64,000 bases of DNA from a virus. Where the stretch lies: the IMG/VR virus record IMGVR_UViG_3300034196_000067, positions 108,796 to 172,795 of that record. The stretch is one strand, 5' to 3'. The position numbers and the translations under genes are program-made. This document shows positions 37,132-37,507 of this stretch, one piece after another. Every line of letters starts with the position of its first letter. Position 1 is the stretch's first letter. The notes below the pieces were generated by a model. It was not told the DNA's origin and ran no database searches. It saw only the letters and a list, made by a program, of their open reading frames with translations.

Positions 37132-37507
37132 GGGGGCGAACTGGTTTCGACAGAGGTAGCCCAGGAAGGGATGCGAGCCGTGGTTGGTCAGCAGGCCACG
37201 TAAAAAGCCGACCAAAGATCAAAGGCCAACCAGCCGATGGTCAACGAGTTCCGCGCCGCGGCCTAACGCGGGCTCGTTGCAGGGACTACGAGAGCCCTGC
37301 CGTTCTCCGGTGAGACTGTACCCTCAGTAACCGGAAGAGCGACATACCGAGGGGCGCCTACGAGGATGCGCCGTCGCGGCCTCGAAAGCGGAAGTCTACG
37401 GGACGGAAGAAGTACGCAATGCCCGGCACCGGGGTAAATCAGGTGACACGCTCGTAGTATCACTTCGCAAGTTCTTCTGGACCCGGGTTCGATTCCCGGC
37501 GCCTCCA
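37132..37507 (+). ncRNA. ssrA: tmRNA (SsrA)
   Basis: 5' GGGGGCGAACTGGTTTCGACAGAGG and 3' GGACCCGGGTTCGATTCCCGGCGCCTCCA pair as a tRNA-Ala-like acceptor with G3:U70. CGTAAAAAGCC precedes the tag ORF 37225-37266 (ANQPMVNEFRAAA-stop). Confidence 0.85.

Follow-up and report, generated by a model that had tools for sequence, protein, structure and literature searches.

Complete genes for transfer-messenger RNA (tmRNA; gene ssrA) have been described from eight cluster C mycobacteriophages and from Bacillus phage G (PMC4131195), huge phages carry tmRNAs, sometimes together with SmpB (PMC7162821), and tmRNA was recorded in 402 of 18,146 phage genomes, or about 2.3% (PMC9004378). Mycobacteriophage DS6A carries the tRNA-like domain only, without the mRNA part, and this RNA is thought to inhibit trans-translation (PMC4131195). 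Although phage-borne tmRNAs are known, they are functionally almost unstudied. We analyzed a tmRNA gene in a 64,000-nucleotide stretch of viral DNA, referred to here as the window (positions 108,796 to 172,795 of the IMG/VR record IMGVR_UViG_3300034196_000067). The gene very probably encodes a functional one-piece tmRNA on a jumbo-phage-like genome of ~209 kb with a probable host in the Myxococcota, and it would have been captured first and have evolved in the phage lineage thereafter.

The window tmRNA shares several properties with the described phage tmRNAs (Bxz1 and cluster C, phage G, huge phages and Melnitz), namely a complete ssrA gene, a large genome of the lytic type, usually many tRNAs, and a sequence resembling the ssrA RNA of the lineage to which the host belongs (PMC4131195, PMC7162821, PMC9004378). 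It differs from them in the phylum of its host, as judged from tmRNA similarity, from the OM43 phage Melnitz in being one-piece, and from some huge phages bearing smpB in that no such gene was found in the 64 kb of the window. Like the DS6A mini-tmRNA, it appears to be a phage-borne derivative of a host ssrA with a host-like tRNA-like domain, whereas, unlike DS6A, its RNA retains a conserved tag frame and pseudoknot 1 (PK1).

Among cellular sequences, the chromosomal tmRNA of Anaeromyxobacter and other Myxococcota is among the closest known counterparts. The first 20 nt of the window tmRNA are identical to those of the Anaeromyxobacter terrae tmRNA, and the last ~30 nt, comprising the T-arm and the 3' strand of the acceptor, are identical to those of Anaeromyxobacter tmRNAs. 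PK1, the adenosine at position -4 relative to the resume codon and the start of the tag, AN(E/Q)PM, are also shared. In contrast, the window RNA is ~28 nt longer, its PK2-PK4 region could not be aligned, its tag has 13 rather than 9 residues and ends with RAAA instead of ALAA, and its neighbors are phage-like. The tmRNA of the cultured phage Mx1, whose host Myxococcus xanthus is amenable to genetics, resembles that of the window in being phage-borne and one-piece, with the same PK1 and a tag ending in AAA. However, only the PK1 region is close. Mx1 has the acceptor GGGCCUG, resumes translation at GUC (Val) and encodes the tag VNTNVFGSQMMAAA; where the two genomes were compared, they were otherwise nearly devoid of similarity. 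The novelty is modest and consists of Myxococcota as the probable host phylum, the unannotated example in Mx1, and a lineage-specific tag ending.

Further relatives were found by scanning IMG/VR with motifs from PK1, the tag and the 5' end, which returned additional tmRNAs on viral contigs of 51-198 kb. Five of these copies (L004, L010, L144, L169 and L170) belong to the tag family of the window tmRNA.

A complete one-piece tmRNA gene

The original prediction, which was drawn from the sequence without database searches, had proposed a complete ssrA-like RNA and recommended the Rfam tmRNA model as a check. This model, RF00023, confirmed the gene. The match extended over window positions 37132-37510 on the plus strand with 114.1 bits (E = 7.6e-44), well above the gathering threshold of 47, and covered the model end to end (1-374 of 374) without truncation. 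A two-piece (permuted) tmRNA, the other form to be considered, was ruled out because the gene is colinear with the standard model from 1 to 374 and no permuted-tmRNA family matched anywhere in the window. As a single sequence, the RNA folds modestly better than its shuffled versions, with a minimum free energy of -158.4 kcal/mol and a z-score of -2.83 against 100 shuffles.

The ends of the RNA form a tRNA-Ala-like domain. The predicted mature RNA runs from G37132 to the discriminator A37507, the last base of the gene as originally drawn, and the 7-bp acceptor with G3:U70 could be read directly in the sequence (GGGGGCG/CGCCUCC). The G3:U70 pair is the identity pair for alanine. The domain is completed by the discriminator base, an A, and by a T-arm whose loop is of the GUUCGAnUC type. 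The two motifs named in advance are indeed present, GGGTTCGATTCCC in the T-arm and the lead-in CGTAAAAAGCC in PK1.

The predicted tag frame with its AAA-stop ending was likewise borne out, both by the Rfam alignment and by A37221. Rfam aligned the GCC at 37225 to the resume codon of the model, and the codons that follow from there read GCC AAC CAG CCG ATG GTC AAC GAG TTC CGC GCC GCG GCC TAA, encoding ANQPMVNEFRAAA. The frame thus has an Ala (GCN) resume codon, a short open stretch, a stop codon and an Ala-Ala C-terminus, with Ala instead of the usual Leu or Met as the antepenultimate residue. In E. coli, the position of A86 is the main determinant of the tmRNA reading frame (PMC2481249). The window tmRNA has its equivalent adenosine at precisely this spacing, 4 nt 5' of the resume codon, which gives the tag frame independent support. 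This A was invariant in all eight phage and host copies inspected (the window, L010, L144, L169, L170, L004, L098 and L016).

Covariation and a host-type sequence

We compared five phage copies (the window, L010, L144, L169 and L170) in an alignment with a mean column identity of 66%. In the canonical helices, comprising the acceptor P1, three P2 segments, stem 1 of PK1 and the T-arm, 93.8% of the cells were paired. Both sides had changed in 20 of the 39 pairs, a value reached by none of 500 shuffles, and pairing was 40-49% when the partners were slid by 1-3 columns. RNAalifold detected compensatory changes in 38 of 81 pairs, with double-sided changes backing P2, both hairpins of PK2 and helix 5, which encloses the stop codon. 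The G3:U pair was invariant in all five copies, and acceptor pairs 4, 5 and 6 changed on both sides. Two of the five stem pairs of the T-arm also showed compensatory changes, and, at the site of a U:A pair in PK1, A:U occurs in Mx1 and G:C in L144, L169 and L170. Within ANEPM, the phage copies differ by synonymous third-base changes (GCC/GCG, AAC/AAT, CCG/CCC), with one nonsynonymous change, E to Q at position 3 of the window tag (GAG to CAG). The tag frame is open in every phage copy. Such a pattern is expected under selection for a functional tmRNA.

Because the helices covary and the tag frames stay intact, two other explanations are disfavored. The first is that a host gene, once captured, is decaying into a relic without function, for which speak the middle of the RNA that cannot be aligned with host tmRNAs, the missing ARAGORN call, and the low posterior probabilities of PK3 and PK4. 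However, compensatory substitutions maintain the helices, and no copy has lost the tag frame, its stop codon, the G3:U pair or the A at -4. The weak fit of PK3 and PK4 is also not a concern, because pseudoknots 2-4 have been replaced experimentally without loss of function (PMC2481249). We regard a relic as extremely unlikely.

The second is a decoy that soaks up the SmpB or alanyl-tRNA synthetase (AlaRS) of the host and thereby blocks host trans-translation in the manner of DS6A. The tRNA-like domain identical to the host type, the lack of an accompanying smpB in the 64-kb window and the precedent of an inhibitory mini-tmRNA (PMC4131195; PMC11915505) would fit such a role, albeit a decoy would need neither PK1, nor the A at -4, nor a tag frame of 11-13 codons with its stop in the usual hairpin, all of which are conserved. 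A decoy would likewise not need the synonymous third-base changes within ANEPM, and we consider this role very improbable. The more general suggestion of the original prediction, that a tmRNA on a mobile element manipulates host ribosome rescue, is conjecture.

The window tmRNA is of a host type. Our cellular sample consisted of genomes with the exact PK1 motif, among the matches listed. At least 120 bacterial species carry this motif in their genomes, the majority of them Planctomycetota and Myxococcota, and its use as a phage-specific marker was rejected since it is common in the chromosomes of both phyla. The eight cellular copies closest to the window tmRNA, among the matches listed, were all from Myxococcota, namely Anaeromyxobacter terrae, other Anaeromyxobacteraceae and Myxococcales metagenome-assembled genomes. 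Likewise, among the 100 cellular tags listed, only those of Myxococcota genomes start with ANEPM. The body 3' of the tag gave no alignment with host tmRNAs.

In a neighbor-joining tree, built from short conserved blocks and without support values, the five ANEPM phage copies were grouped on long branches apart from a tight host cluster. A GGGCCYG acceptor, in which G3:U is kept, was found in four phage copies (Mx1, L144, L170 and L004) and in none of the 71 cellular copies listed. Together, the acceptor and the grouping in the tree point to long residence in phages rather than to repeated recent capture. The simplest reading of the sequences is that the tmRNA was captured from an Anaeromyxobacteraceae-like Myxococcota host and then evolved in the phage lineage.

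Tag endings in phage and host copies

All 15 cellular Myxococcota species listed have the tag ANEPMALAA. The phage tags of the same family are ANQPMVNEFRAAA in the window, ANEPMVSLRAVA in L010, ANEPMALLAVA in L004 (whose locus, as retrieved, ends before the stop codon), ANEPMINMAAAAA in L144, ANEPMFAQQLAAA in L169 and ANEPMQQLAVA in L170. All six start with AN(E/Q)PM, have 11-13 residues and end with AAA or AVA. An LAA or MAA ending is therefore found in 0 of 6 phage tags as opposed to 15 of 15 host tags listed (Fisher p = 1.8e-5, ignoring shared ancestry). Among the 100 cellular tags listed, 96 end with LAA or MAA and none with AAA or AVA. These copies provide a comparative series, in which 15 host species listed with one invariant tag stand against six diverged phage copies that have kept all elements required for trans-translation and have changed the ending of the tag. 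The tags of Mx1 and L005, which form a separate tag family, also end with AAA. A general avoidance of LAA by phage tags was rejected, as LAA, MAA or IAA endings are kept in L006, L009, L238, L253 and marine contigs. No mention of the tag strings ANEPMALAA and ANDNVELALAA was found in the literature searched.

We speculated that the altered, longer tag ending with A-(A/V)-A could itself be the point of the phage copy by changing the fate of the tagged proteins. The altered tags could slow degradation by ClpXP and so avoid its saturation, or could hand the products over to another, possibly phage-encoded, adaptor or AAA+ unfoldase. The uniform AAA/AVA endings of the six phage copies against the invariant ANEPMALAA of the hosts, the AAA endings of Mx1 and L005, and the absence of both endings from the 100 cellular tags listed are in line with this idea, as are the two AAA+ ATPases encoded in the window. 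For ClpXP, mutation of the antepenultimate Leu or of the last two Ala, including the penultimate one as in the -AVA tags, raises the Michaelis constant (PMC7652416). On the other hand, the terminal Ala-Ala-COOH is the dominant determinant, the loss of the antepenultimate Leu has a modest effect (PMC7652416), and the window tag retains Ala-Ala. We accordingly softened the notion that an AAA ending abolishes the degron. The six copies also cluster together, so that a single ancestral change followed by drift might account for them, LAA, MAA or IAA are retained by other phage-borne tmRNAs, the evidence on ClpX specificity does not come from Myxococcota, and the AAA+ genes have no link to the tag. 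A purpose in the altered tag thus remains a tentative proposal.

An extension of the same idea, just as tentative, is that a lineage of large Myxococcota phages including Mx1 has long kept a captured tmRNA whose tag was systematically re-tuned, with an N-terminal half like that of the host and a lengthened C-terminal half ending in A-(A/V)-A, so that tagged products are handled differently, and that the tmRNA, the tRNAs and the RNA repair proteins RtcB and RlaP serve counter-defense. If this were true, ribosomes would still be rescued, and the tmRNA together with the tRNAs and RtcB/RlaP would counter RNA-cleaving defenses of the host. Since Mx1 is a cultured phage of a tractable host, both the benefit of a phage tmRNA and the role of its tag are experimentally approachable.

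Carrier genome and gene surroundings

A metagenome contig of the Joint Genome Institute (3300034159, Ga0370509_0000001; 209,442 bp) contains stretches with 100% identity to the window, and the same holds for a Logan contig. Because the latter bridges the ends of the former, the genome is ~209 kb and circular or circularly permuted. The window encodes 42 tRNAs on one strand, of which 35 were also called by Rfam at the gathering threshold. Tyrosine is the only amino-acid type missing from the set, and unusual anticodons occur, for example His(ATG). The ARAGORN and Rfam scans gave no rRNA in the window, and no housekeeping genes were found there. An endolysin with GH108 and PG_binding_3 domains is encoded (PHROGs/Pfam), one AAA ATPase has homologs in 113 phage genomes, and the remainder of the window consists of dozens of small open reading frames (ORFs) without matches; small ORFs of the same kind continue for 8.7 kb past the window end. 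Near-identical DNA for 15 kb of the window had no match among 50,697 phage records.

The relatives of the tmRNA are found in phage surroundings. In L170, the tmRNA gene follows those for terminase, portal and head morphogenesis at a distance of ~700 nt, the L144 tmRNA is a few kb from a gene for a 1,479-aa tail fiber, and those of L004 and L010 adjoin tRNAs in tRNA arrays. The gene content and these relatives strongly suggest that the carrier is a phage genome, and they support the original view that the gene is element-encoded and not chromosomal; that tmRNAs are known in huge phages had also been stated correctly (PMC7162821, PMC9004378, PMC4131195).

The gene might instead be the chromosomal ssrA of a host, present in bacterial DNA or in the flank of a prophage, or might reside on a megaplasmid. 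This would be compatible with the frequent use of ssrA as an attachment site by islands and prophages (PMC11915505), with the translation genes that large plasmids can carry (PMC7162821) and with the lack of a capsid or terminase gene in the window. However, 42 one-strand tRNAs without rRNA, a genome that closes at ~209 kb, the many small unknown ORFs, the endolysin and the phage-shared proteins are all at odds with it, and neither an integrase nor smpB was found next to the gene. Moreover, none of the 100 cellular tags listed resembles that of the window, close relatives are embedded in phage structural modules, and the G+C content of the window is 58% as compared to 68.8% for M. xanthus (PMC10720576), the sole myxobacterial host for which a figure was retrieved. 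We consider a chromosomal or plasmid location improbable.

Several points weigh against the preferred reading of a functional, phage-borne tmRNA with a Myxococcota host. On the side of the RNA, ARAGORN made no tmRNA call at the locus with default settings or with -ps80, and with -ps60 it returned spurious permuted calls only. PK3 and PK4 have low Rfam posterior probabilities and fit the model poorly, and the window tag lacks the Leu or Met at -3 that 96 of the 100 cellular tags listed possess. The bases 3' of the discriminator are CUU, hence CCA is not encoded and must be added enzymatically after transcription. Encoded CCA was found in 15 of the 42 window tRNAs by a loose test, which accepted CCA up to 4 nt away from the 3' end as called, and the tmRNA database records that CCA is not always encoded (PMC11915505). 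Concerning expression, a terminator-like hairpin lies just 5' of the tmRNA, and a scan of 36700-37700 found no sigma-70-like promoter. Concerning the carrier, neither capsid nor terminase was found among ~45 window ORFs with PHROGs and Pfam, so that its nature is judged from gene content and relatives. The host, most likely an Anaeromyxobacteraceae-like member of the Myxococcota, is assigned from the similarity of the tmRNA within a sample defined by the PK1 motif. We infer expression, charging, use of host SmpB and a benefit to the phage from the sequence.

A functional tmRNA in a phage of this kind could act as follows. The RNA would be cut out of a long transcript, its CCA end would be supplied by a CCA-adding enzyme, and the AlaRS of the host would charge it with alanine. 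We assume host SmpB, because no smpB was found in the window or in related phage loci. With this protein, the RNA could enter ribosomes that have stalled during infection because their mRNA is broken, where translation would resume at the GCC codon, append the 13-residue ANQPMVNEFRAAA and end at UAA, freeing the ribosome. Through its Ala-Ala-COOH end, the product would become a substrate for degradation of the ClpXP type. Sequences required to match host proteins would have stayed host-like or identical, the acceptor with G3:U70 for AlaRS and the T-arm with its adjoining stem for SmpB, EF-Tu and RNase P, while the body with its pseudoknots and the C-terminal half of the tag would have diverged after capture. 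The 42-tRNA array and the tmRNA form one set of translation and RNA repair equipment with RtcB and RlaP, which may sustain translation when the infection, host shut-off or RNA-cutting defenses give rise to non-stop mRNAs and damage mRNAs, tRNAs or the host tmRNA.

Features of the tmRNA gene and of the window, with their positions, strand and the evidence for each
Feature	Position	Strand	Evidence or remark
tmRNA (ssrA) gene, one-piece	37132-37507	+	Rfam RF00023, read from sequence, covariation (four related phage copies)
Acceptor stem, 5' strand GGGGGCG	37132-37138	+	opposite strand CGCCUCC (37500-37506), 7/7 pairs, G3:U70
PK1, CCGUGG...CCACG and GGUCAGC...GCCGACC	37178-37213	+	Rfam alignment
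CGTAAAAAGCC, within PK1	37199-37209	+	read from sequence
Frame-setting adenosine, 4 nt 5' of resume codon	37221	+	corresponds to A86 of E. coli
Tag frame from resume codon GCC to stop TAA (37264-37266), encoding ANQPMVNEFRAAA	37225-37266	+	Rfam alignment, codon table
3' body: helix closing around stop codon, PK2 hairpins, divergent PK3/PK4, P2 3' strand	37267-37482	+	RNAalifold, Rfam
T-arm, stem CCGGG/CCCGG, loop UUCGAUU	37483-37499	+	Rfam alignment
GGGTTCGATTCCC, in T-arm	37485-37497	+	read from sequence
Discriminator A	37507	+	read from sequence
Acyl carrier protein gene, upstream neighbor	36814-37089	+	PF00550 PP-binding, E 5.2e-12
G+C-rich 9-bp hairpin followed by AUUUUCU, ending 9 nt 5' of tmRNA	37097-37122	+	terminator-like scan
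155-aa protein gene, downstream neighbor	37547-38014	+	homologs, AlphaFold2 (AF2) model
42 tRNA genes, 19 amino acids, no Tyr	790-18143	+	ARAGORN, Rfam
RlaP nucleotidyltransferase	4506-5471	+	Pfam; inside tRNA array
AAA ATPase	7108-8598	+	Pfam; inside tRNA array
HNH endonuclease	15063-15608	+	Pfam; inside tRNA array
cREC_REC, cyclic-phosphate-processing receiver domain	17171-17674	+	Pfam; inside tRNA array
RtcB RNA ligase gene	33339-34520	+	PF01139, E 4.7e-122

The immediate neighbors of the tmRNA gene are listed in the table. As originally predicted, the gene adjoins an acyl carrier protein gene rather than smpB: a tblastn search at E <= 10 found no SmpB-like ORF in the window. The SmpB query was validated on chromosomal loci, in many of which it found smpB beside ssrA at E <= 1e-31, and the same query did not find smpB in the related phage loci. 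The hairpin between the acyl carrier protein gene and the tmRNA looks like either a terminator of the former or an element of processing or stability.

The protein encoded downstream has 134 homologs with an invariant GGGWRWHKWG motif and yielded an AF2 model with a predicted local distance difference test (pLDDT) score of 94.3, with no match to a Pfam family or a PDB fold. At 155 aa, it is about the size of SmpB. A role as a divergent SmpB or dedicated partner was rejected, as the protein had neither a Pfam match nor tblastn similarity to SmpB. A specific tie to the tmRNA was rejected as well, since its homologs in other large contigs have no tmRNA next to them.

A ligase-like protein (Pfam) also belongs to the RNA-repair genes of the window. 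According to tblastx, RtcB lies near a tmRNA and tRNAs also in the related viral contigs L005 and L009, and L009 additionally has the AAA ATPase of the window and its neighbor. A co-oriented block at 25795-33223 (plus strand) encodes a classic-clade AAA+ ATPase (AAA and AAA_lid_3), a DUF1257 protein, a 661-aa unknown protein, a DUF2997 protein, a 103-aa unknown protein and an 851-aa vault-like protein. The latter contains the shoulder and repeat domains of major vault protein and matched, in the phage collection, only three huge phages of 462-735 kb (LR756500, LR756501 and LR756503). The endolysin gene and a gene for a GroES-like co-chaperonin are located on the minus strand at 48475-49038 and 51376-51795, in a block that otherwise holds small unknown ORFs.

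Mx1 provided the sole similarity to the window tmRNA among the phage records (78.7% identity over 88 nt in the PK1 region). The Mx1 tmRNA (OR576727.2, 46646-47023; 3990-4367 of our locus L001) is full-length, scores 117.7 bits with Rfam and is located in a tRNA array. It is missing from the GenBank annotation, in which a 41-aa coding sequence named 'Hef-like endonuclease' (WNM70103.1) lies inside the tmRNA; this coding sequence is spurious. The Mx1 genome paper lists 22 tRNAs and no tmRNA, and we found no description of a tmRNA in myxophages in the literature searched. An HNH endonuclease gene follows the Mx1 tmRNA.

ARAGORN missed four full-length tmRNAs detected by Rfam or nhmmer, namely the window gene (37132-37507), L007 567-933, L010 6291-6650 and L144 8098-8493; surveys based on ARAGORN only may therefore under-count phage tmRNAs. 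For L012 2987-3372, the ARAGORN frame differs from the frame aligned to the resume codon. The L170 tmRNA (9163-9464 of IMGVR_UViG_3300028573_000022, a mid-sized phage with 52.9 kb) is short, with 302 nt, and apparently misses part of the PK3/PK4 region. Long tags also occur in the aligned frames, with 37 residues in L007 567-933 (ANFNTFTEDSLFGGKLKPLAAVEGFVPTTNASQFAYA) and 28 residues in L011 10359-10764 (AKNEEFDVPFDLIVANGFGVGHGVRALA).

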